Positions 3,893 through 39,860 of a stretch of DNA of 44,354 nt are shown one piece after another; position 1 is the first letter of the stretch; the number at the start of each line of letters is the position of its first letter. Below the pieces are notes generated by a model, which worked only from the letters and a program-made list of their open reading frames with translations, ran no database searches and was not told where the DNA came from. Both the position numbers and the translations under genes were made by a program. This DNA is from Vectrevirus LF31P3, in sequence record OZ035776.1; one strand, 5' to 3'.

Positions 3893-3915
3893 ATTTACTG
3901 GACACTATAGAAGAG
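3893..3915 (+). promoter_or_regulatory. phage RNAP promoter (atttactggacactatagaagag), +1 G at 3910
   Basis: Full match to the most common promoter variant; upstream of the tailspike genes. Confidence 0.8.
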
Positions 3916-5972: not shown

Positions 5973-8156
5973 ATGCTTCAAAGATTAGGGGCAATGTTTG
6001 TTCGGTACAAAAATAAAGTAGGTAATGCTATCGAGCGTACACTACAAAGTAAATTACAGGATGTAGTAAGTGTAAAGGATTATGGCGCTATTGGTGATGG
6101 AGTATATCGTTCACTTGGTGCTAAATTTACCACGTTAAGTATGGCACAAGTAGTATACCCGCATGCGGAAAGTTTAACTCAATCGCAAGATTGGGCGGCT
6201 ATTCAGGCTGCACTTAATTCTCACTCAAAAGTGTACATTCCAGCAGGTAAGTACATGCTATCTGATACCATTGAGATGCGCGGCGGTCAAACTCTGCAAG
6301 GTGACGGTATTGATTCTTGGGTTGCAGGTTATGCTGGGTTTGTAAAAGATAATCAAGGCACTCACCTCATAATGGTGGGAGAGGGAAATAAGAAGTATAC
6401 ATTAGATCATGTATCTAACTTCGATGTAGAAGGTGGTGTCATAGACAACCCAGCTAAGGGTGACGCTTATACTGCCACTGCACCTTCCCCTAATTACTCA
6501 TTTACTGACTTCACTAATGCTAACGCCTCTGGTGCACAACGTGCTACATTGAAACATTTCAGTGTAGCATTACGTTGCACAGGTCACGGTGGTGTTTATC
6601 TTCGTGACTTCCGTATTGTGCCTAATCACAGAGGGCAAGAAGGTTATAAGGATGAGTTGTCAACTGCATTAGGGGACGCATGGGATGTAGGTATTTGGCT
6701 GGAGAATACATCTGACTCAGTGTTATCTTCTGTGCAAGCAGTAGGTTACTGGCGCATTGCAGGTGTTATGAAGACTTGTATACCACAAGAGGGTTCCTTT
6801 GTTGGTGGAGATCGTGATAGGGTATACAATTGCACATTACAAGGTTATCGTGGCTTCTTAGCACGTTCGCATGATACTTACCAAGTAGAAGAAGTATCAG
6901 GTAACACTGTATCGATTAAGTGGTCTGCATCTCACACTTTCGAACCTTCTGGTAAAGTTCGTATCCAAGGGAAAGACCGTAGTTATACTAGCCTGTCTGT
7001 ATCTGGTGACAAATTAGTTTTCAATGGTATTGACGATGTATCAGGTATTAATACCAATAGCTATGTGAGAGTTTCAGGGTCTTCATTCGGAATGTCTGCT
7101 ACTCAACTAAATAACACATACATCGCTGCATTAAACCATCATGCTCGCTTGCCAGCAACCTCTAACCTTTTAGATAATGGGTTTGTTACTTCGGCAGCTT
7201 GCTATGAAGTTGCAGGTGAACCAATTCGTGCCATAAAATTATCTAACTGTACTGTCATTACTTGGGATGACATCTTAGGTATGACTGGTGGTATTCGGGA
7301 CTTCCAGACGACAGATACTTACTTCGAGTCTCAGCCTTTCCGTACTTCTGTGCAAGGCTTGGCAAGCACCACACAACCTGCTGGTTCTCGCATGATTGCA
7401 CTTCGTGGACGTCAAGGTTCTAAAACTACAGGCTATCAAGCTATCGGTTGTACTTATGGGCCAGGTGTAGACCTAAGCCCTCGTTATGAAAGCGATGTAT
7501 CTCGTTACACAACTTCCGGTGGTATGTTCAATCCAAGAGAAGATTTGAACACAACTAAGCAGTTACCAATGAGGCAAGACGCTACTGAGCTATCTTCTAC
7601 TTCTGACTTATTCCTTACACATGCTGCAGGTGGGAAGGCCTATGTTGGCGCTACCTCTGGTGATGCAACGCTTCAATCTAGAACTGGATCATTGAATATC
7701 CAATCAGGACTTCGTGTACGCATTGGTGGCACTGATGGTAGTGGTTGGTACATTGCTGACAGTGCTAAGTTGACACCTACTGCTGACAATGCAAGGGCTT
7801 GTGGACAGCCTAATGGACGATGGACTGTTGTCTATGCTGTTAATGGTACAATCCAGACTTCTGATGGTAGATTCAAGGAAATCCTTGAGATTGAACAGGC
7901 AGAACTTGATGCTGGTCTTGAATTATCAGCAAACCTAATTAAGTATCGGTGGAATGGGGAAGATAAAATTCACTTTGGTTGCATAGCACAAGAAGTGATG
8001 TTAATACTGGAGAAACATGGCCTAGACCCATTACAATATGATATGGTTCAGTATGATGAGGAGGCAGACATCTTTGGGGTAAACTATGCTGAACTCAACA
8101 GCTTCTGTATTGCAGCATTATCGAGGAAGTTAAATGCCATTAATCAGATCAGTTAA
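5973..8156 (+). CDS. tailspike protein 2 with C-terminal intramolecular-chaperone (peptidase S74-like) domain
   Basis: N-terminal VKDYGAIGDG motif (pectate-lyase/beta-helix tailspike signature); C-terminal SDGRFKE ... GCIAQEV resembles the autoproteolytic chaperone domain of endosialidase-type spikes; aaggagg before ATG. Confidence 0.75.
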   Translation: MLQRLGAMFVRYKNKVGNAIERTLQSKLQDVVSVKDYGAIGDGVYRSLGAKFTTLSMAQVVYPHAESLTQSQDWAAIQAALNSHSKVYIPAGKYMLSDTIEMRGGQTLQGDGIDSWVAGYAGFVKDNQGTHLIMVGEGNKKYTLDHVSNFDVEGGVIDNPAKGDAYTATAPSPNYSFTDFTNANASGAQRATLKHFSVALRCTGHGGVYLRDFRIVPNHRGQEGYKDELSTALGDAWDVGIWLENTSDSVLSSVQAVGYWRIAGVMKTCIPQEGSFVGGDRDRVYNCTLQGYRGFLARSHDTYQVEEVSGNTVSIKWSASHTFEPSGKVRIQGKDRSYTSLSVSGDKLVFNGIDDVSGINTNSYVRVSGSSFGMSATQLNNTYIAALNHHARLPATSNLLDNGFVTSAACYEVAGEPIRAIKLSNCTVITWDDILGMTGGIRDFQTTDTYFESQPFRTSVQGLASTTQPAGSRMIALRGRQGSKTTGYQAIGCTYGPGVDLSPRYESDVSRYTTSGGMFNPREDLNTTKQLPMRQDATELSSTSDLFLTHAAGGKAYVGATSGDATLQSRTGSLNIQSGLRVRIGGTDGSGWYIADSAKLTPTADNARACGQPNGRWTVVYAVNGTIQTSDGRFKEILEIEQAELDAGLELSANLIKYRWNGEDKIHFGCIAQEVMLILEKHGLDPLQYDMVQYDEEADIFGVNYAELNSFCIAALSRKLNAINQIS

Positions 8157-8280
8157 GCAAAGTGCTGTACGCCAGAACACAGAAGAGCTTATTCAATCAG
8201 GACGTGACCCTAAGCAGGCTTATGCCATTGCCAAGGATATACAACGTCGTACCTTGAAGAAACCTTCTGCATCTTCTGCG
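8134..8280 (+). CDS. small basic ORF (48 aa), hypothetical
   Basis: gagg near ATG, overlaps tailspike 2 stop; weak evidence only. Confidence 0.25.
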
Positions 8281-9250
8281 TAAGCAGATTAATATCTTAG
8301 TGTACACAAGGGCAGACTTATGCTAGCTCACAGCACACCTATGAGTGCCGCTCTGGAGTCTATGACTTGTTCCCTGACTATCTAGGTTTGCTCTTAGTGT
8401 ATTCCAAAGGAGGTAACATGCAAGAGGAGAATTGGGATGTGTAATGTTGGATATGGAGAAGGTTGAACCTTAGTGTTGTACAAGGATTAACCAAAGTCAA
8501 AATTTTGATATAGGCGTGTGTCAGCTCTCTCGCCCTCGCCCTCGCCGGGTTGCCCCCATATGGGGTCGGTCGGCGGTTGACCTAGGAATTGGGCTGGGCG
8601 GGTCCGTCTTCAACCTGCTGCCGCAGGAAGCTCGACGGGTGGGCGAGGGCTTGCCTTGTACTCGCTTAGTGGTACACAAGGAGAGCGCCTAGGAAGCGCT
8701 AGGGCGCGCCTTAGTATTAGACAAGGTGATTGCCTTAGTTCAACCGCTTAGGGCTTACACGGGCCGTTTTAGGGCCACTCCTGAGCGTTTGACAGGGTGT
8801 GAGGGTGTGGGCTATCTGTTTGTTTCGTCGCTGGCGCTCCTCACTTCGTTTCGCTAGCGCTCCACTCACAAGCCTGACGTGTACCTTAGTTACTACCTTA
8901 TGCTATTACTTGATGGATAGCTTAGGTTAAACTTAGTGGACTACCTTAGTTAAAGCCTTAGTGCTTATCTTAGTAATAGCTTAGTAGTGTACCTTAGTAA
9001 GTCTTAGTGTCTTCTCTTAGTGATTGCACATGCAAGCATGTAAGATGCCATTAGGTCGCGGTCGGTAGACCGCTAAAGAGAGAGAATAGTAATAAGATGC
9101 AGTAGGAGGGACACCAGAAACCTAGCCAACCTAGCCTATCCTAGCTCTGTATCTATTGCTTTTCCTTAGTCTCACATGTTAGACAACCTAGGTTTACCTT
9201 AGTAGTTGTGACATGTATCACATAAATAATCTATCTTAGTGAAACTTAGT
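8280..9250. repeat. terminal-region short-repeat arrays (CTTAGT core, about 20 copies; densest 8880..9030)
   Basis: Repeated (c)cttagt(g/a) units in an ORF-free region between the last late gene and the first early promoter; analogous to repeat arrays near T7-group genome ends. Confidence 0.6.
8526..8650. repeat. GC-rich inverted-repeat element
   Basis: cgccctcgccctcgcc (8531..8546) is mirrored by gggcgagggc (8641..8650) about 100 nt away; internal palindrome ccccatatgggg; markedly more GC-rich than surrounding sequence. Confidence 0.5.
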
Positions 9251-9251
9251 G

Positions 9252-9280
9252 TTGACACCGACAATCAACAGGTATACATT
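9252..9280 (+). promoter_or_regulatory. host sigma70-type early promoter (TTGACA-N17-TACATT)
   Basis: Perfect -35 hexamer, 17-nt spacer, -10-like TACATT; upstream of first early ORFs. Confidence 0.55.
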
Positions 9281-9429
9281 AGCAATCACTGAGATGGACC
9301 TAGCAAGTTGTCTCAGGTTATAAGCAGGAGAATTGATGCGTAAGCCATAGCTAGTGGATGCAGTCGCATGAAGGCTTGAGTAAGGGGCCGTTTAATACCT
9401 TCTTCCTCTGGAGACAACGCTTATAACAC

Positions 9430-9445
9430 CGCTCTTTAACAATTT
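9430..9445 (+). promoter_or_regulatory. boxA-like antitermination element 1 (cgctctttaacaattt)
   Basis: Identical to the rrn-type boxA core GCTCTTTAACAATTT; in early leader. Confidence 0.6.
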
Positions 9446-9501
9446 GCTTAGTGTAACCTATGTATGCCGTGGTTAATTACTTATTGAATGAGGAATTAAC
9501 T

Positions 9502-9597
9502 ATGAATTACGAAGAAATGTACGAAGTTTACTTTAACTCGACTGATGAGGGCGAAGAAGTCTTGTCTTATGCTGAGTTTGTGGAGGCTTTATCATGA
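9502..9597 (+). CDS. small acidic early ORF (31 aa)
   Basis: gagga before ATG; ATGA overlap with next ORF. Confidence 0.3.
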   Translation: MNYEEMYEVYFNSTDEGEEVLSYAEFVEALS

Positions 9598-9759
9598 TTC
9601 TGAATAACCGTGAATTGTCCATTCTCTTCACTCTGTTATGCTACATGATTCGTAACAACGAATTACTTACAGATGACGAGTTGGCACTGTATCACCGCTT
9701 TATTAACGAAGGTTGGACCGATACAGTTAATCAATACCGTAACATGATAGATGAGTTGA

Positions 9760-9770
9760 GGGGGGGGGGG
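9760..9770. repeat. G11 homopolymer
   Basis: Eleven consecutive G read directly. Confidence 0.9.
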
Positions 9771-9772
9771 TT

Positions 9773-9982
<210 letters not shown>

Positions 9983-9987
9983 AAATA

Positions 9988-10212
9988 ATGTATCAACATG
10001 AGGTATTCTTTGAATCAGCTAGCGAAGCTATTCGCTTCCGTGATGATATGATGCAAGCTGGTGTAGGCGTTGATGTGTATCACTATTTGATAGATTACGA
10101 CACTGAATATCACCGAGTTACCTTAGTATCTGAGTATGACAACCAAGTCGTTACTGAGTATCTAGGCAGTGAAGATTACGATTACGATGAAGTAATCACG
10201 ACAAATCTCTAA
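9988..10212 (+). CDS. small acidic early protein (74 aa, D/E/Y-rich)
   Basis: ATG at 9988; intact copy of the duplicated unit. The track ORF 9790..10212 would prepend a polyproline stretch translated from the C tract. Confidence 0.5.
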   Translation: MYQHEVFFESASEAIRFRDDMMQAGVGVDVYHYLIDYDTEYHRVTLVSEYDNQVVTEYLGSEDYDYDEVITTNL

Positions 10213-10220
10213 ATTAACTG

Positions 10221-10249
10221 TTGACAGCCACGGCATACAAGGTTACATT
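10221..10249 (+). promoter_or_regulatory. host sigma70-type early promoter (TTGACA-N17-TACATT), second copy
   Basis: Same architecture as 9252..9280. Confidence 0.55.
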
Positions 10250-10281
10250 AAGCATCAAGACGGCGACGTCTTTAAACATCC

Positions 10282-10297
10282 CGCTCTTTAACAATAT
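10282..10297 (+). promoter_or_regulatory. boxA-like element 2 (cgctctttaacaatat)
   Basis: Preceded by hairpin aagacg-GCGA-cgtctt (10257..10272, GNRA loop), i.e. boxB-like stem-loop then boxA. Confidence 0.6.
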
Positions 10298-10340
10298 GGT
10301 TTGTGTCTTGATAGGCTAACTAACTAACTAAGGTAATTAT

Positions 10341-12386: not shown

Positions 12387-15014
12387 ATGCAAGACCTACA
12401 CGCTATTCAACTTCAACTTGAAGAAGAAATGTTTAACGGCGGTATCCGTCGCTTTGAAGCGGACCAACAACGCCAGATTGCATCCGGTAATGAATCAGAC
12501 ACGGCATGGAATCGCCGCTTATTGTCCGAGTTAATCGCGCCAATGGCTGAAGGTATTCAGGCATACAAGGAAGAATATGAAGGCAAGCGAGGCCGTGCAC
12601 CACGTGCATTGGCTTTCATTAACTGCGTAGAAAATGAAGTGGCAGCGTATATCACGATGAAGATCGTAATGGATATGCTTAACACTGATGTAACCTTGCA
12701 AGCTATCGCTATGAATGTAGCTGACCGCATTGAGGACCAAGTACGTTTTAGCAAGCTGGAAGGTCACGCCGCCAAATACTTTGAGAAAGTTAAGAAGTCA
12801 CTTAAGGCAAGTAAGACTAAATCATATCGCCATGCGCACAACGTAGCGGTCGTGGCTGAGAAGTCAGTAGCTGACCGTGACGCTGATTTCTCTCGCTGGG
12901 AGGCGTGGCCTAAAGATACCTTGCTACAAATTGGTATGACCTTGCTAGAAATACTGGAAAATAGTGTATTCTTCAATGGTCAGCCTGTCTTTCTTCGCAC
13001 CTTGCGCACTAATGGTGGCAAGCATGGCGTTTACTACTTACAGACTAGCGAACACGTGGGTGAATGGATAACTGCATTTAAAGAGCACGTAGCTCAGCTC
13101 AGTCCTGCCTATGCACCTTGCGTTATTCCTCCGCGTCCGTGGGTTTCTCCGTTTAATGGTGGCTTCCATACTGAGAAAGTAGCAAGCCGTATTCGTCTGG
13201 TAAAAGGCAACCGCGAGCACGTCCGTAAGCTGACCAAAAAGCAAATGCCAGCGGTTTACAAGGCTGTTAACGCCTTACAAGCTACTAAGTGGCAGGTTAA
13301 CAAGGAAGTATTGCAGGTAGTAGAAGATGTTATTCGTCTAGACCTCGGTTATGGTGTACCTTCCTTTAAGCCGCTCATTGACCGCGAGAACAAACCAGCT
13401 AACCCTGTACCTCTTGAGTTCCAACACCTGCGAGGCCGTGAACTGAAAGAGATGCTTACGCCAGAACAGTGGCAAGCCTTCATCAACTGGAAAGGTGAAT
13501 GTACCAAGCTGTATACCGCTGAAACTAAGCGCGGCAGCAAGTCGGCGGCAACCGTTCGCATGGTCGGGCAGGCCCGTAAATACAGCCAGTTTGACGCAAT
13601 ATACTTCGTGTATGCACTGGACAGCCGCTCACGCGTTTATGCGCAATCTAGCACACTCTCACCGCAATCAAATGACTTAGGCAAGGCGTTACTACGCTTT
13701 ACCGAAGGGCAGACCATAAACAGCACTGAGGCGCTTAAGTGGTTTTTGGTGAACGGGGCGAATAACTGGGGTTGGGATAAGAAAACTTTTGACGTGCGTA
13801 CCGCTAACGTGCTGGATGGCGAATTTCAAGACATGTGCCGCGACATTGCAGCCGACCCGCTGACCTTCACTCAATGGGTAAATGCCGACTCCCCTTATGG
13901 CTTCCTTGCATGGTGCTTTGAATATGCGCGTTATCTGGATGCACTGGATGAAGGCACGCAAGACCAATTCATGACGCACCTACCCGTCCATCAAGACGGC
14001 AGTTGCTCTGGTATCCAGCACTATAGCGCGATGTTACGCGATGAAGTAGGTGCGAAAGCAGTAAACCTTAAGCCTTCTGACTCCCCTCAAGATATTTATG
14101 GCGCGGTTGCGCAGGTTGTTATCCAGAAGAATTACGCCTACATGAATGCAGACGATGCAGAGACTTTCACATCTGGAAGCGTCACACTTACAGGTGCAGA
14201 ACTGCGTAGCATGGCTAGTGCGTGGGATATGATAGGAATCACTCGCGGATTGACCAAAAAGCCCGTAATGACACTACCTTATGGCAGCACACGTCTAACC
14301 TGCCGTGAATCAGTGATTGATTATATCGTTGATTTGGAAGAAAAAGAGGCCCAACGAGCTATTGCGGAAGGGCGTACCGCCAATCCTGTACATCCTTTTG
14401 ATAATGACCGTAAGGACAGCCTGACACCTAGCGCAGCTTATAACTATATGACAGCTTTAATCTGGCCTTCTATTTCGGAAGTGGTTAAAGCTCCTATAGT
14501 GGCAATGAAAATGATTCGTCAGCTTGCCCGTTTCGCAGCTAAAAGGAATGAAGGCTTAGAGTATACCTTGCCTACTGGCTTCATCTTGCAACAAAAGATA
14601 ATGGCGACAGATATGCTCCGCGTATCTACTTGCTTGATGGGAGAAATCAAGATGAGTCTACAGATTGAAACGGACGTAGTGGATGAAACGGCTATGATGG
14701 GCGCTGCTGCTCCTAACTTTGTGCATGGTCATGATGCCAGCCACCTTATCTTAACAGTCTGCGACCTTGTTGATAAAGGGATTACATCTATCGCAGTCAT
14801 TCATGATTCTTTCGGTACTCACGCAGGCCGTACAGCCGATCTACGTGATAGTCTAAGGGCAGAAATGGTGAAGATGTATCAAGGCCGTAATGCCCTGCAA
14901 AGCCTGTTAGATGAGCATGAAGAACGCTGGTTAGTAGACACCGGAATCCAAGTGCCAGAGCAAGGAGAGTTTGACCTTAACGAAATCTTAGTATCTGACT
15001 ATTGCTTCGCATAA
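12387..15014 (+). CDS. single-subunit DNA-dependent RNA polymerase (T7/SP6 type)
   Basis: 875 aa; recognisable phage RNAP motifs ([22 protein letters not shown]); N-terminus resembles SP6 RNAP as recalled. Confidence 0.95.
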
Positions 15015-15269: not shown

Positions 15270-15285
15270 GTCTCACATGTGAGAC
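15270..15285. repeat. perfect 16-bp palindrome GTCTCACATGTGAGAC (copy 2)
   Basis: Exact palindrome immediately upstream of the second tandem promoter. Confidence 0.9.
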
Positions 15286-33764: not shown

Positions 33765-36166
33765 TGGAAGTACAAGGTTCATTAGGTAGACAAATCCAAG
33801 GGATTAGCCAGCAGCCGCCAGCGGTACGCTTGGATGGTCAGTGCACAGCTATGGTTAATATGATACCTGATGTAGTGAATGGTACTCAATCACGCATGGG
33901 TACAACTCATATTGCAAAGATACTTGATGCGGGGACTGATGACATGGCTACTCATCATTATCGCAGAGGTGATGGTGATGAAGAGTATTTCTTCACGTTG
34001 AAGAAAGGACAAGTTCCTGAGATATTTGATAAGTATGGGCGCAAATGTAATGTGACTTCACAAGATGCACCTATGACTTACTTAACTGAAGTAGTCAACC
34101 CAAGGGAAGATGTGCAATTTATGACTATTGCAGATGTAACCTTTATGCTTAATCGAAGAAAGGTAGTTAAAGCTCGTACTGATAAATCACCAAAGGTTGG
34201 AAATAAGGCGATTGTCTTCTGCGCCTATGGCCAATATGGGACTACTTATAAAATTATAATTGATGGCAATGTAGCAGCTACACGTACCACCCCTGACGGT
34301 GGTGAAGCGGGTCAAGTTGTAAATATAAGAACAGAAGACATTACAAACCATCTTTATGATAGTTTACAGCAATGGAGTGGTATTAATGCCTACAACATCC
34401 AGAAAGATGGAACAAGTATCTTTATTGAAAAGAAAGATGGTAGCTCTTTTAATATTACTACAGAAGATGGTGCAAAAGGTAAGGACTTAGTAGCCATAAA
34501 GAACCGTGTAGCCTCTACCGACCTTCTACCCTCCCGTGCACCTGAAGGTTACAAAGTGCAAGTATGGCCTACTGGAAGTAAACCGGAGTCACGTTATTGG
34601 CTGGAAGCAGAACCAAAAGAGGGGAATTTAGTATCATGGCAAGAGACAGTAGCGGCGGATGTTTTACTTGGCTTTGATAAAGGGACCATGCCGTATATTA
34701 TTGAGCGTACAGGTATCATTGATGGTATTGCTCAATTTAAGATTAGGCAGGGTGACTGGGAAGACCGCAAGGTGGGGGATGACCTCACTAACCCTATGCC
34801 GTCTTTCATTGATGAAGAAGTTCCTCAGACAATTGGCGGAATGTTCATGGTGCAGAACCGTTTATGCTTTACAGCAGGTGAAGCTGTCATTGCATCACGC
34901 ACTTCCTACTTCTTTGATTTCTTTCGTTATACGGTTATCTCTGCATTGGCAACTGACCCATTTGATATTTTCTCAGATGCTAGTGAAGTCTACCAGTTAA
35001 AACATGCAGTGACCTTAGATGGCGCTACCGTGTTGTTCTCTGATAAGTCACAATTCATACTGCCAGGAGATAAGCCTTTAGAGAAGTCAAATGCATTGCT
35101 TAAGCCTGTTACAACATTTGAAGTGAACAATAAAGTGAAGCCAGTAGTAACTGGTGAATCGGTAATGTTTGCCACTAATGATGGTTCTTACTCTGGTGTA
35201 CGAGAGTTCTATACAGACTCTTATAGTGACACTAAGAAGGCACAAGCAATCACAAGTCATGTGAATAAACTCATCGAAGGTAACATTACCAACATGGCAG
35301 CAAGCACCAATGTCAACAGGTTACTTGTCACTACCGATAAGTATCGTAACATAATCTACTGCTACGATTGGTTATGGCAAGGAACAGACCGTGTACAATC
35401 AGCATGGCATGTATGGAAGTGGCCTATAGGTACAAAGGTGCGAGGTATGTTTTATTCTGGCGAATTACTTTACCTGCTCCTTGAGAGAGGCAATGGTGTC
35501 TATCTGGAGAAGATGGATATGGGTGATGCATTAACCTATGGTTTAAATGATCGCATCCGAATGGATAGACAGGCAGAGTTAATCTTCCAGCATTTCAAAG
35601 CAGAAGATGAATGGGTATCTGAACCGCTACCTTGGGTTCCTACTAACCCAGAACTTTTAGATTGCATCTTAATCGAGGGTTGGGATTCATATATTGGTGG
35701 TTCTTTCCTATTCAAATACAACCCCGGTGATAACACCTTGTCTACAACCTTTGATATGCATGATGATAGCCACGTAAAAGCGAAGGTTATTGTTGGTCAG
35801 ATTTACCCTCAAGAGTTTGAACCAACACCTGTAGTTATCAGAGATAGGCAAGACCGTGTATCTTATATTGATGTACCTGTTGTGGGATTAGTTCACCTTA
35901 ATCTTGATATGTATCCTGATTTCTCCGTGGAGGTTAAGAATGTGAAGAGTGGTAAAGTACGCAGGGTGCTAGCGTCAAACCGTATAGGTGGTGCTCTCAA
36001 CAATACAGTAGGTTATGTTGAACCAAGAGAAGGTGTCTTCAGATTCCCACTGAGAGCTAAGAGTACGGATGCTGTTTATCGTATTATTGTAGAATCACCT
36101 CACACATTCCAGCTTCGTGATATTGAGTGGGAAGGGAGCTACAATCCAACCAAAAGGAGGGTCTAA
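33764..36166 (+). CDS. tail tubular protein B (gp12-like)
   Basis: About 800 aa; N-terminal GISQQPP block like T7 gp12; TAATG overlap with upstream gene. Confidence 0.85.
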   Translation: MEVQGSLGRQIQGISQQPPAVRLDGQCTAMVNMIPDVVNGTQSRMGTTHIAKILDAGTDDMATHHYRRGDGDEEYFFTLKKGQVPEIFDKYGRKCNVTSQDAPMTYLTEVVNPREDVQFMTIADVTFMLNRRKVVKARTDKSPKVGNKAIVFCAYGQYGTTYKIIIDGNVAATRTTPDGGEAGQVVNIRTEDITNHLYDSLQQWSGINAYNIQKDGTSIFIEKKDGSSFNITTEDGAKGKDLVAIKNRVASTDLLPSRAPEGYKVQVWPTGSKPESRYWLEAEPKEGNLVSWQETVAADVLLGFDKGTMPYIIERTGIIDGIAQFKIRQGDWEDRKVGDDLTNPMPSFIDEEVPQTIGGMFMVQNRLCFTAGEAVIASRTSYFFDFFRYTVISALATDPFDIFSDASEVYQLKHAVTLDGATVLFSDKSQFILPGDKPLEKSNALLKPVTTFEVNNKVKPVVTGESVMFATNDGSYSGVREFYTDSYSDTKKAQAITSHVNKLIEGNITNMAASTNVNRLLVTTDKYRNIIYCYDWLWQGTDRVQSAWHVWKWPIGTKVRGMFYSGELLYLLLERGNGVYLEKMDMGDALTYGLNDRIRMDRQAELIFQHFKAEDEWVSEPLPWVPTNPELLDCILIEGWDSYIGGSFLFKYNPGDNTLSTTFDMHDDSHVKAKVIVGQIYPQEFEPTPVVIRDRQDRVSYIDVPVVGLVHLNLDMYPDFSVEVKNVKSGKVRRVLASNRIGGALNNTVGYVEPREGVFRFPLRAKSTDAVYRIIVESPHTFQLRDIEWEGSYNPTKRRV

Positions 36167-36912
36167 TGGCTATAGGTTCAGCCGTTATGGCTGGTATGTC
36201 TTCTATTGGTAGTATGTTTGCAGGTAGCGGTGCAGCAGCCGCTGCTGGGGGTACTGCCGCAGCAGCAGGAGGGACAGCCGCCGCAGGTGGCGGAGGTTTG
36301 CTTGGCTCCCTTGGTAGTTTCTTAGGAGGTTCTTCTGCTGGCTTCTCTAATGCAGGACTGCTTAGTGCAGGTATGCAAGGTCTTGGGCTTCTAGGCAATC
36401 TTTTTGGTGGAAGTGATGAAGCCAAAGCTATGAAGAAAGCTCAGGAGGAGCAATGGCGGCAGCAGTTAATTGCTACACAAGAAGCATATAAGACAGTAGC
36501 AGATGCAGAACGCTCTGCTGCTAAACAGTATCATGCGGATGCAATAAGCAATCAGGCTTCACTGCTACAGCAAAGAGCGCAGGTTGCACTACTTGCAGGT
36601 GCAACTGGCACTGGTGGTAACTCTGTATCTTCTATGCTGAATGACTTAGCAGCAGAGGGCGGGAGGAACCAGAGTACAATTATTGATAACTATGAGAATC
36701 AGAAGATTAACTTCACCAATCAGCTTAAGTCTATCCAGCGAGGTGGACAGATGCAGATGCGTGAGTTTAAGAAGCCTTCTGCCGTGAGCACCTTGGTGCA
36801 AGGTATACCGAGTCTGGCATCTGCCTATGTAACAGGCAGTAAGTCCGGCATGTCTTTAGGTAAAGCTTTAACTGATTCTCGTACATATTCATCTGGAACA
36901 AGAGGTATTTAA
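36166..36912 (+). CDS. internal virion protein (Gly/Ala-rich, gp13/14-like)
   Basis: 248 aa; aaggaggg before ATG; position. Confidence 0.6.
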   Translation: MAIGSAVMAGMSSIGSMFAGSGAAAAAGGTAAAAGGTAAAGGGGLLGSLGSFLGGSSAGFSNAGLLSAGMQGLGLLGNLFGGSDEAKAMKKAQEEQWRQQLIATQEAYKTVADAERSAAKQYHADAISNQASLLQQRAQVALLAGATGTGGNSVSSMLNDLAAEGGRNQSTIIDNYENQKINFTNQLKSIQRGGQMQMREFKKPSAVSTLVQGIPSLASAYVTGSKSGMSLGKALTDSRTYSSGTRGI

Positions 36913-39860
36913 TGGCAATTGAGCGACAAGCAGTACAAGGTCTGCCACAAGTGCAGGCCACTTCTCCTAATGTCATGACCTTTGCACCTCAGCGAGTTGG
37001 AGGTGTGGAGGCTGGCGTAGCTTCTACCTCCGGTAGTCGATTTATCGAAGACCTTATTCGAGCAGCCAGTAGTGTAGCTGATGTAACCACTGGTATCCTT
37101 AATCAAAAGATTGAGGAAGATAAGGTTGTTCAAATGGAACGGGCATATAACGGATTAATGCCTTCTGAGGATGCAACTCGTGGTGGCGCTCGTGCTAACA
37201 TGCTTGTCAAAGCTCAACTGCTAGCTAATGATGAAGCAGCACGAATGAAAGACATGGCTACTCGTTTCCAAGGAACGGATGACGAGTGGACACAACTTAT
37301 GGTTGACTCTCGTAATGAGATGCAGAATAAGCTGTTCCAGCAATACCCTGAGTTGCAAGGTGACAAAGATACTATGCGTATGGTCACTAATGTCTTCCAA
37401 GAACAGCAGCCTCAGATTTGGGCTACACGAACCCAGCATAAACTTGACCGTGAACAAGCAGACCGTGAGGATACCTTTGACGGGCGAGTGGCTTCTACTT
37501 GGGATTCTAATATTGACCCTGAAGCCTCTGGCTATGCTTTACAGGAACGAATCCGCGAAGGTCTTACTCAAGGATTACTACCTGAACAGATGCACAAGAA
37601 GTTAGTCCAGCGAGCAATTTCACTTGCACAAGGCGGTGATGTTAGCATGGCTGAAGCCCTGAAGTATGTGAAGGACGATAAGGGTGTTTCTGTTTATGCT
37701 AAGAATCCACAGCTTATCACAGCCATCACTAGTGGTAATGCAGTTTGGGCTAGGAATAATGTAGCTGATGTAACTCGTATGTCTTTCGAAGTTAAAGAAT
37801 CCTACCTTGCAGGTGATTTAACTGATGAAGAATTGTTGGAACGAGCACAGCACATTAATAATCTGACAGGTAACTCTGTCTTCTCTAATCCAGAGCTAGA
37901 GGCACTGATGCGCCAACGGGCTAAGCAGAATGCAGAGCTAGGTGCAATGCAGGATATGCGACGTGAGCTTTACTCCGACCGCCTGACTGGCTTCCAAGGT
38001 AAGACTGATAAAGAGAAGAAGGCTTACATTGATGTTATCAAACAGGATAGCCAACTTTATGCAGACCAGCAAATCAAACAACGTGGCTTGGACCCTTACA
38101 GTCAAGAGGCTGAAGCTATTCGTGGTGCAGTGGAAGTGCAGCGCCTGCAATTCATGAACTCCAAAGGCTTAGTGGATGATACCTTTGAGTCTCGTATCAA
38201 AGCCATGGAATCTATGCTATCGCCTGAGCACTTTGCCAAGGGCGAACCACAGGAGTTGATGACTATTCGCCAGTTGTGGGAACAGTTGCCAGAAGAGAGC
38301 CGAGGTGTCTTTGGTGACACGGTGAATGGCTACATGGATAACTACAACACTGCACTACAAATGGGAGAGACACCTTTGCAGGCTGCAAGGTTTGCGCGTG
38401 AAGCACAGCAGAAATTCTCTCGTACTGAGAAGGAAACCAAGAAGTTCAACTCAGCTATTGGAGATGCACTGGATGAGGTATCTGGTGCTGGCTGGTTTGA
38501 TGGTAAAACCGAAGTGTCAGACTTAGGTAAAGCTATTGCGGAAGAAGAGTTACGAGCTAAGGCCAATATGTTGTGGTCTAGTGGTATGCGTAACATGGAT
38601 TCTATCAAGAAGGCTTTAATTACTTGGGGCAATAAACGCTACACTCAATCAGAGGATGCAAAGACTTCCGGTGGCTATTTCATTAAAGGTGATTACACTT
38701 CTGCATCTGATATGCTTATGTCAGTTGGGAAAGGCGTAAACCCTACCGATGTACCTCTGGCGCTTGGTAGGTATGTAGAAACACAGATGCCAGAATTGAA
38801 GAAGGAGCTTCAAGAGTGGGAAACTAAAGATGATATATACATTGATTACAATGAACAGAAAGGTACTTTCGTGATTCGTGCTGGTGCAGCAGGTCGCCCT
38901 CTTTCTGGAGTAATCCCTGTAACCTCTTTAGATACCACTTCACTACTAGATTCTGCCTATCAGAAGAAAGTAGAGGAACGAGATAAAGGCGAGTATGTTC
39001 ACCCGTATCGTACAGATATTGGTGCACAAGAGCCTATGCCAGCTAAACCAACTGCCAAAGATATTGGTAAATTTGGACTAGCTAACTTCCTCATGTCTTC
39101 TGCTTTTGCTTCTGGCGAGAATCTGCCTTCTAACTTCGAGATTAACTACCGAGGTAATATGCAACAATTCTATGACAAGCTAGCTATGGATGAGAATAAA
39201 GATAAAGTTGGCTTTAATAAGGCAACTGGAACCTTTACTCCATATAAAGACGCTCACGGTGAGTCTATCGGTTACGGTCATTTCTTAACGGAAGAAGAGA
39301 AGCGAAACGGGTATATTAAGATTGGCGATGAACTAGTTCCCTATCGAGGGTCTATGTCTCAGCTTACAGAGAGCAAGGCTCGCGCTCTTATGGAGCAAGA
39401 TGCTAAGAAGCATGTGCCTCCTACTCGTGACTGGAAGATTCCGTTTGACCAGATGCACCCTGCACAGCAACGTGGCTTGATGGATTTAAGCTACAATTTA
39501 GGTAAAGGTGGAATCCAGAACTCACCGCGTGCTCTTGCTGCATTCAAAGCTGGTAAGCTTACGGAAGGCTTTATCGAAATGCTGGGCACTGCATCAAGTG
39601 AAGGTAAGCGTATTCCTGGTCTACTGAAGCGACGTGCTGAGGCATACAATATGGCATCTGCTGGTGGTGTGCCTAAGATTACCGAAGTGGAGACTCGTGA
39701 AGATGGCTCCATGTGGGTTAGGTTTGGTGGACCTATGCCAGCAGGTTCTGTCTCGGCCTGGACTCATAAACGTATTGGCGCGGATGGTTGGTATCAGGTT
39801 TATGAGTCTGCACCTACCAAGTTAGCTAAAGGTTCTAAGGTAGGTAAAGTTAAGTTGTAG
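36912..39860 (+). CDS. internal virion (ejection) protein with T4-lysozyme-like (GH24) domain
   Basis: C-terminal segment YKDAHGESIGYGHFLT ... GLLKRRAEAYNMA parallels the T4 lysozyme active-site region YKDTEGYYTIGIGHLLT. Confidence 0.75.
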   Translation: MAIERQAVQGLPQVQATSPNVMTFAPQRVGGVEAGVASTSGSRFIEDLIRAASSVADVTTGILNQKIEEDKVVQMERAYNGLMPSEDATRGGARANMLVKAQLLANDEAARMKDMATRFQGTDDEWTQLMVDSRNEMQNKLFQQYPELQGDKDTMRMVTNVFQEQQPQIWATRTQHKLDREQADREDTFDGRVASTWDSNIDPEASGYALQERIREGLTQGLLPEQMHKKLVQRAISLAQGGDVSMAEALKYVKDDKGVSVYAKNPQLITAITSGNAVWARNNVADVTRMSFEVKESYLAGDLTDEELLERAQHINNLTGNSVFSNPELEALMRQRAKQNAELGAMQDMRRELYSDRLTGFQGKTDKEKKAYIDVIKQDSQLYADQQIKQRGLDPYSQEAEAIRGAVEVQRLQFMNSKGLVDDTFESRIKAMESMLSPEHFAKGEPQELMTIRQLWEQLPEESRGVFGDTVNGYMDNYNTALQMGETPLQAARFAREAQQKFSRTEKETKKFNSAIGDALDEVSGAGWFDGKTEVSDLGKAIAEEELRAKANMLWSSGMRNMDSIKKALITWGNKRYTQSEDAKTSGGYFIKGDYTSASDMLMSVGKGVNPTDVPLALGRYVETQMPELKKELQEWETKDDIYIDYNEQKGTFVIRAGAAGRPLSGVIPVTSLDTTSLLDSAYQKKVEERDKGEYVHPYRTDIGAQEPMPAKPTAKDIGKFGLANFLMSSAFASGENLPSNFEINYRGNMQQFYDKLAMDENKDKVGFNKATGTFTPYKDAHGESIGYGHFLTEEEKRNGYIKIGDELVPYRGSMSQLTESKARALMEQDAKKHVPPTRDWKIPFDQMHPAQQRGLMDLSYNLGKGGIQNSPRALAAFKAGKLTEGFIEMLGTASSEGKRIPGLLKRRAEAYNMASAGGVPKITEVETREDGSMWVRFGGPMPAGSVSAWTHKRIGADGWYQVYESAPTKLAKGSKVGKVKL

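Follow-up and report, generated by a model that had tools for sequence, protein, structure and literature searches.

Arrays of CTTAGT repeats at the predicted concatemer junction of Vectrevirus LF31P3 and their proposed role in genome maturation

The non-coding DNA at positions 8284-9459 of the Vectrevirus LF31P3 record (OZ035776.1) would be the concatemer-junction region of this phage, and the arrays of the hexamer CTTAGT that run through it can be proposed, with moderate confidence, to be cis signals read by a phage factor, most likely terminase, during maturation. A role of such arrays in the processing of concatemer junctions has long been supposed. The anatomy of the region, its homology to the termini of related phages, the constraint on the hexamers, their strict orientation and the lineage specificity of the motif can all be read from the sequence comparisons described here, and from these we infer the protein that would read the motif and the step at which it would be read. 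The feature is already known in kind from T7 and T3, and it has homologues in the published genomes of SP6, K1-5 and K1E.

The window, meaning here the whole stretch of 44,354 nt that was analysed, holds the entire genome of a Vectrevirus (SP6/K1-5/K1E group, Autographiviridae) in circularly permuted form, opened at an arbitrary point. This assignment follows from protein homology, the promoters, the placement of the genes on one strand and a nearly monotonic GC skew. The RNA polymerase, primase, DNA polymerase, portal and capsid proteins are 79-92% identical to their SP6 counterparts, with an RNAP-sized ORF at 12387-15014 showing 86% identity to SP6 gp7, and tail fibre and tailspike proteins are also encoded. 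The + strand carries all genes, the cumulative GC skew climbs almost monotonically, and at least 10 phage promoters share the core ACTGGACACTATAGAAG. The terminal region is 85-93% identical to that of Vectrevirus genomes (K1E, K1-5, mutPK1A2 and PhiNW-E1) and has a more distant kinship to Zindervirus (SP6) and other Molineuxvirinae. In a circularly permuted assembly of this kind the terminal repeat is predicted to have collapsed to a single copy.

An earlier note on this DNA, made from its letters alone, had described a 1.4-kb stretch with no ORF of 60 aa or more. This holds for 8157 to 9593, and the true intergenic gap is 8284-9459, i.e., 1176 bp without a credible gene between the stop codon of a gp48-like gene, whose product is 81% identical to SP6 gp48, and the first early ORF. 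No ORF in it exceeds 58 aa. Some records annotate small ORFs in this interval, which are unlikely to be genes because relatives differ by many indels and by a direct terminal repeat (DTR) of 174-288 bp. The terminase genes and the elements of the junction are as follows, in window coordinates:

30-329, TerS gene (PHROG family match)
326-2227, TerL gene (PHROG family match)
8134-8283, + strand, gp48-like gene of 49 aa, the last before the genome right end (phrog_2423, E = 1.7e-22)
8296-8485, + strand, right-end CTTAGT copies before the DTR, at 8296, 8393 and 8469, with an ACAAGG extension on those at 8296 and 8469
8488-8525, + strand, the most widely conserved block, just outside the DTR left end, AACCAAAGTCAAAATTTTGATATAGGCGTGTGTCAGC
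8526-8530 to 8814, + strand, predicted DTR of ~287 bp (285-289), placed by homology with the DTRs of linear relatives
8665-8739, + strand, CTTAGT copies inside the DTR, at 8665, 8710 and 8734, with an ACAAGG extension on the first two
8814-8820, + strand, ATCTGTT, the sequence of a class II pause/termination signal, straddling the DTR right edge
8885-9021, + strand, dense left-end array of nine CTTAGT copies just right of the DTR
9022-9120, + strand, highly conserved non-coding block, from the left-end alignment
9121-9145, + strand, second short repeat, CCTAGC, in three copies at 9121, 9130 and 9140
9165-9250, + strand, four further CTTAGT copies at 9165, 9198, 9235 and 9245
9252-9280, + strand, candidate sigma-70-type early promoter, TTGACA-17-TACATT (10/12 matches)
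9447-9452, + strand, CTTAGT copy apart from the others, shortly before the first early ORF
9460-9597, + strand, first early ORF (phrog_2061)

The DTR can be located by comparison with linear relatives. Exact repeats computed from both ends of four linear records measure 174 bp in SP6, 234 bp in K1-5, 288 bp in K1E and 286 bp in mutPK1A2. A DTR is also annotated in the records of mutPK1A2 (as a 'redundant repeat'), Mt1B1_P10 (267 bp), phD2B and UAB_Phi78. In five of five linear records the repeat starts inside a 4-bp window of the sequence ...GGCGTGTGTCAGC^TCTCTCGCCCTCGCC and ends at ...GGGCTA^TCTGTT. Each of these boundary blocks occurs only once in the window, at 8528 and at 8803-8814, the left boundary varying within 8526-8530 with the reference record. 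An alignment of nine phages shows both blocks to be nearly invariant and the DTR interior to be highly variable. On this homology the termini of the isolate would lie at 8526-8530 and 8814, inside the interval 8160..9250 in which the earlier note had expected the ends and the DTR to be found. The same note had held that the repeat could not be delimited from a single collapsed copy, a view that does not stand, the five records delimiting it by homology to ~2 bp. A sixth record, that of UAB_Phi78, compared over its positions 1-180, is annotated with both DTR edges ~12-15 bp further left, and because of this offset a working uncertainty of +/-15 bp is attached to the edges. For UAB_Phi78 the mapping of the ends was experimental, with Bal31 digestion followed up by run-off sequencing (PMC4837284). 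Either the cut sites of this phage truly differ from those of SP6, K1-5, K1E, mutPK1A2 and Mt1B1_P10 or one of the mappings is imprecise.

The block at 8488-8525 contains a 12-bp palindrome, TCAAAATTTTGA (8497-8508). It is nearly invariant in the nine phages and is also present in phD2B and PmP19. When Proteus, Klebsiella and Lelliottia phages are compared, matching is confined to the part of the query that holds this block (query 205-280). Such conservation makes it the probable recognition or cleavage context of the left-end cut.

The CTTAGT repeats stand on both sides of the predicted cuts at ~8526-8530 and 8814/8815, with three copies before the DTR, three inside and fourteen after. The earlier note had counted about 20 copies, and there are indeed 20 on the + strand in 8296-9452, 19 of them within 8280-9250 plus the one at 9447; none is found on the - strand in 8100-9600. 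Outside the region the background is 0.43 copies per kb per strand, and in 1157 bp 0.5 copies are expected where 20 are observed (Poisson P = 2e-25). On both strands of the whole window there are 57 matches, compared with 29.7 +/- 4.9 in dinucleotide-preserving shuffles, and none of 100 shuffles reached 57. The repeats are densest where the note had placed them, at 8880..9030, with nine copies at 8885-9021. Eight of these, at 8932-9021, are spaced 13, 12, 12, 11, 13, 10 and 13 bp apart. The flanks follow the consensus y-CTTAGT-g, with C or T at -1 in 15/20 copies and G at +1 in 11/20.

Repeated gtacacaagg units had also been reported. Two exact copies exist (8302 and 8672), which are not significant on their own; the string is the 3′ extension of a composite unit, CTTAGTG-N3-4-ACAAGG, that is present four times (8296, 8469, 8665 and 8710). 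Part of the ACAAGG extension recurs as an inverted copy, CCTTGTAC, at 8654-8661. A reading of the dense array as a hairpin element was rejected because it folds more weakly than shuffled sequence, with less single-strand structure (z = +1.85).

The termini of SP6, K1-5, K1E, mutPK1A2 and other Zindervirus and Vectrevirus phages carry the same CTTAGT copies, including the eight copies of the dense block in the same order and spacing, and they match the window in the cut-site blocks and in the hairpin-bearing block to the right of the array. The differences are small. The DTR of the window is of the long (K1E-like) type, and there is an extra CTTAGT at 8885 that lies in a 12-bp insertion relative to these phages. 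The three right-end copies have homologues in K1E, K1-5, SP6 and PST_H2. The spacer before the DTR also holds a 64-bp insertion (8312-8375) that is common to the window and Salmonella phage PST_H2. It is absent from K1E, K1-5, SP6 and PhiNW-E1. This distribution hints that the terminal regions of Vectrevirus and Zindervirus have recombined.

When the dense block of eight relatives is compared with the window, identity is 0.96 in the hexamer columns and 0.69 in the spacer columns. For the distant SP6, PST_H2 and Kpp-61 the values are 0.89 for the hexamers and 0.47 for the spacers. The 13-12-12-11-13-10-13 spacing recurs in K1E, K1-5, mutPK1A2, PhiNW-E1 and PDP21P3. Judged by their excess over the background and by these alignments, the arrays are highly non-random and the hexamers under selection. 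This bears on the idea that the repeats arose through slippage or unequal recombination in the non-coding termini and persist as tolerated by-products that nothing reads. Short, imperfectly spaced, non-coding copies that number 15-20 among relatives would suit such an origin, as would a DTR interior whose length varies greatly (174-288 bp) and motifs that differ from lineage to lineage in the way that concerted turnover would produce. However, hexamers that are kept while the spacers around them diverge to 0.47 identity, an order and spacing of eight copies retained across genera, a complete strand bias (20 to 0) and a T7 junction with the same three-part distribution of an unrelated motif make the idea of mere by-products quite improbable.

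In T7 the top hexamer of the junction is CTAAAG, with two copies before the DTR, three inside and eight just after it, and none on the other strand. T3 shows a similar distribution of C(C/T)TAAAG. T7 and T3 thus resemble the window in having a motif of 6-7 bp arrayed in non-coding DNA upstream of the early host promoters, with every copy on the transcribed strand, with few copies before the DTR, three inside and at least eight just after, and with ATCTGTT at the right edge of the repeat. The array-DTR-array layout is the same in T7 and T3, which bears out the analogy with T7-group genome ends drawn in the earlier note, and because of this shared pattern before, inside and after the DTR the CTTAGT arrays can be regarded as the SP6-group counterpart of a T7-group feature. 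The motif itself differs, being CTTAGTG in the window and CCTAAAG in T7, and the DTR of the window (~287 bp) is longer than that of T7 (160 bp) or T3 (231 bp). A further difference is that the window has no phage promoter near either end, whereas phiOL (T7 and T3) and phiOR (T7) are annotated close to the junction.

The array motif turns over between phage lineages. CTTAGTG is carried by Vectrevirus, by Zindervirus and by Klebsiella phage Kpp-61. Proteus phage PmP19 and Klebsiella phage K13PH07C1L carry (c)CATAGTG(c) instead, with 12-14 copies of the core ATAGTG on one strand, and Lelliottia phage phD2B (annotated DTR of 262 bp) has nine copies of CATGATG in its first 650 bp. The phages with CATAGTG or CATGATG retain both cut-site blocks and the overall layout. 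The two Klebsiella phages differ from each other, Kpp-61 having CTTAGT and K13PH07C1L having CATAGTG; across the phages compared the array motif tracks phage lineage and not host, which points to a phage-encoded reader. In phD2B no copy of its own motif CATGATG precedes the DTR, and the right-end copies may thus be dispensable. The exchange of the motif around conserved cut sites is a modest comparative point. The terminal repeat of PmP19 (~1170-1340), like that of K13PH07C1L, also bears CTGTGGATAAC in direct repetition, about six times. This unit is complementary to the DnaA-box consensus TTATCCACA; the window contains none of these boxes.

Right of the dense array, the conserved block at 9022-9120 holds the hairpin GCGGTC-GGTA-GACCGC (9058-9073; -7.4 kcal/mol, z = -2.8). 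A single snoRNA match at chance level was all that Rfam (E <= 1) returned for 8000-10300, and hence there is no known RNA family in this interval. The first and third CCTAGC copies that follow the block are kept in most relatives and the middle copy is variable. The candidate promoter at 9252-9280 is conserved in relatives and lies ~724 bp from the predicted left end.

The last CTTAGT copy (9245) abuts the -35 hexamer of this first early promoter, a placement that counts against a role in packaging since it also fits early transcription. The arrays might then control early transcription or genome entry, with a factor of host or phage origin binding them at the DNA end that enters first; in the case of entry they would affect the halt of the ~0.7-0.9 kb that enters before transcription pulls in the remainder. 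The left array does lie between the genome left end and the first sigma-70-type promoter, which is itself 724 bp from this end as predicted. Two copies (9235 and 9245) adjoin the -35 element at 9252 and another copy precedes the first ORF, and in PmP19 and K13PH07C1L, with their different motif, ATAGTGgTTGACA likewise abuts the TTGACA of the first early promoter. Nevertheless, control of early transcription or entry is unlikely. The far right end of the genome and the DTR interior have copies as well, hundreds of base pairs from any promoter, and 230-370 bp separate the dense block from the promoter downstream of it. In addition, a motif that follows phage lineage, with Klebsiella phages having either version, argues against a host factor.

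ATCTGTT is a sequence-specific class II pause/termination signal of T7 RNA polymerase (bioRxiv 10.1101/2021.01.11.426313), and the T7 concatemer junction has been described as a class II terminator whose seven-base motif is strictly conserved (bioRxiv 10.64898/2026.02.12.705533). In the 44-kb window ATCTGTT occurs once on the + strand, at the DTR right edge, the other four occurrences being on the - strand. It is found at the same edge in SP6 (174) and phD2B (262), and in T7 and T3 it is at 161 and 232, next to DTRs of 160 and 231 bp. A search for phage promoters found none in 8284-9460, the nearest upstream one being at 3897-3913, and a search of 8000-10300 for intrinsic terminators detected none. 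With no promoter after 3897-3913 and no intrinsic terminator, late tail-gene transcripts would enter the repeat and meet ATCTGTT. The copy at 8814-8820 is thus a putative pause site for the phage's own polymerase.

Two readings of the arrays in terms of promoters were set aside. They were considered as degenerate promoters of the phage and rejected as such because no phage promoter was found in the terminal region. SP6 and the window share CTTAGT despite differing promoter specificity regions, that of the window reading ACTGGACACTATAG with no GGTGACACTATAG. A resemblance of the reverse complement CACTAAG to the promoter core CACTATAG was likewise dropped, because CCTAAAG of T7 has no such resemblance.

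Under the favoured reading, the junction would be ordered as a non-coding right end, a collapsed DTR, a pause signal and a non-coding left end that runs up to the early host-type promoters, and a phage-encoded factor, most likely the terminase complex (TerS and TerL), would read the arrays as cis-acting DNA signals. As the left end enters the cell first it would be packaged last (last-in-first-out), so that packaging of the T7 type would begin at the right and move leftward. On this scheme the first DNA to be packaged would carry the copies before and inside the DTR. These would lie beside the initiating cut at the DTR right edge, and a paused polymerase would mark the site of this cut. The motor would meet the dense, one-orientation array ~70-500 bp before the final cut at ~8526-8530, and the array might announce, in an orientation-dependent way, that the end is near, in a manner comparable to lambda cosQ. 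Alternatively, the dense array might serve as a platform for duplicating the repeat. [quoted passage not shown] Packaging of plasmids by T7 needs an origin, a pac site and the terminal repeat (PMC13236587). A literature search found no experiment on a packaging need for the repeats or on terminase binding to them; searches with the motif strings returned primer noise only, and a search by names of the T7 arrays gave nothing relevant.

Repeat-based terminase sites are familiar from other phages, including the R sites of lambda cosB together with cosQ, the pac hexamers of P1 and pacL/pacR of SPP1. Like the arrays in the window, these are short repeats beside a fixed cleavage site, orientation-dependent and specific to a phage lineage. 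In lambda, P1 and SPP1 it has been shown experimentally that the small terminase subunit binds the repeats or that they help to end packaging, whereas for the arrays described here such a role is proposed from the sequence.

If terminase reads the motif, the small subunit would be expected to change together with it. TerS is 79% identical to that of SP6, 70% to that of phD2B and 68% to that of PmP19, values similar to those of other proteins, with scattered substitutions and no visible co-variation with the motif across the CTTAGTG, CATGATG and CATAGTG lineages. In phD2B (36141-38783) the TerL gene is split by an inserted homing-endonuclease gene and annotated as two CDS; TerL of the window aligns to both halves.

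A more specific and rather speculative version of the packaging role, for which we see only a modest chance, is that the array motif (CTTAGTG, CATAGTG or CATGATG, and CCTAAAG in T7) forms a lineage-specific 'self' code, the cleavage blocks being generic across Molineuxvirinae and the dense block a cosQ-like signal for the final cut. By this motif the packaging machinery would distinguish concatemers of its own phage from those of relatives in the same cell, and if this is true a swap of the motif should re-target packaging. The combination of conserved cut sites, selected hexamers and a motif replaced wholesale between lineages independently of host offers an experimental handle, with a possible use in engineering SP6/K1-type phagemids or transducing particles.

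In its direct repeats and their fairly even spacing the left-end array also resembles iterons, and it could in principle be an iteron-type secondary replication origin or priming zone. T7 has secondary origins near both ends, and the six or so DnaA-box-like CTGTGGATAAC units of the PmP19 DTR would accord with such a function. The window, however, is devoid of DnaA boxes and, in 8284-9460, of any phage promoter akin to T7 phiOL/phiOR. The units of 6-7 bp are far below the size of typical iterons (~17-22 bp) and no initiator gene is adjacent. An origin of this type is therefore highly improbable, and a signal for packaging continues to be the preferred interpretation of the arrays.

As a gain for annotation, the genome is to be re-opened at ~8528 and a DTR of ~287 bp added at the right end. 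Its length is affected elsewhere as well. Between a poly-G run (9760-9771) and a poly-C tract of ~98 nt (9886-9983) the 114 bp that follow are present a second time in degraded form (81% identity), and window positions 9772-9884 and 9983-10095 both align to K1-5 955-1067. An error of sequencing or assembly almost certainly produced the segment 9760-9983, which interrupts early genes and makes the genome ~225 bp too long.

Two further repeated sequences are scattered through the window. The 10-mer AAGGGCAGAC is present five times on the + strand (8308, 13705, 15253, 15791 and 19132), one copy coming directly after the first CTTAGTGTACAC unit at the right end and another lying beside a palindrome at 15270. 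This perfect 16-bp palindrome, GTCTCACATGTGAGAC, is itself found five times (15088, 15270, 17481, 23324 and 39878). Three of the copies closely precede phage promoters or sequences resembling them, and two belong to a GC-flanked hairpin context. The palindrome may act as an operator or, in RNA, as a processing or terminator hairpin. The terminal region also holds a half-degenerate version, GTCTCACATGTTAGAC, at 9169-9184 beside a CTTAGT copy.
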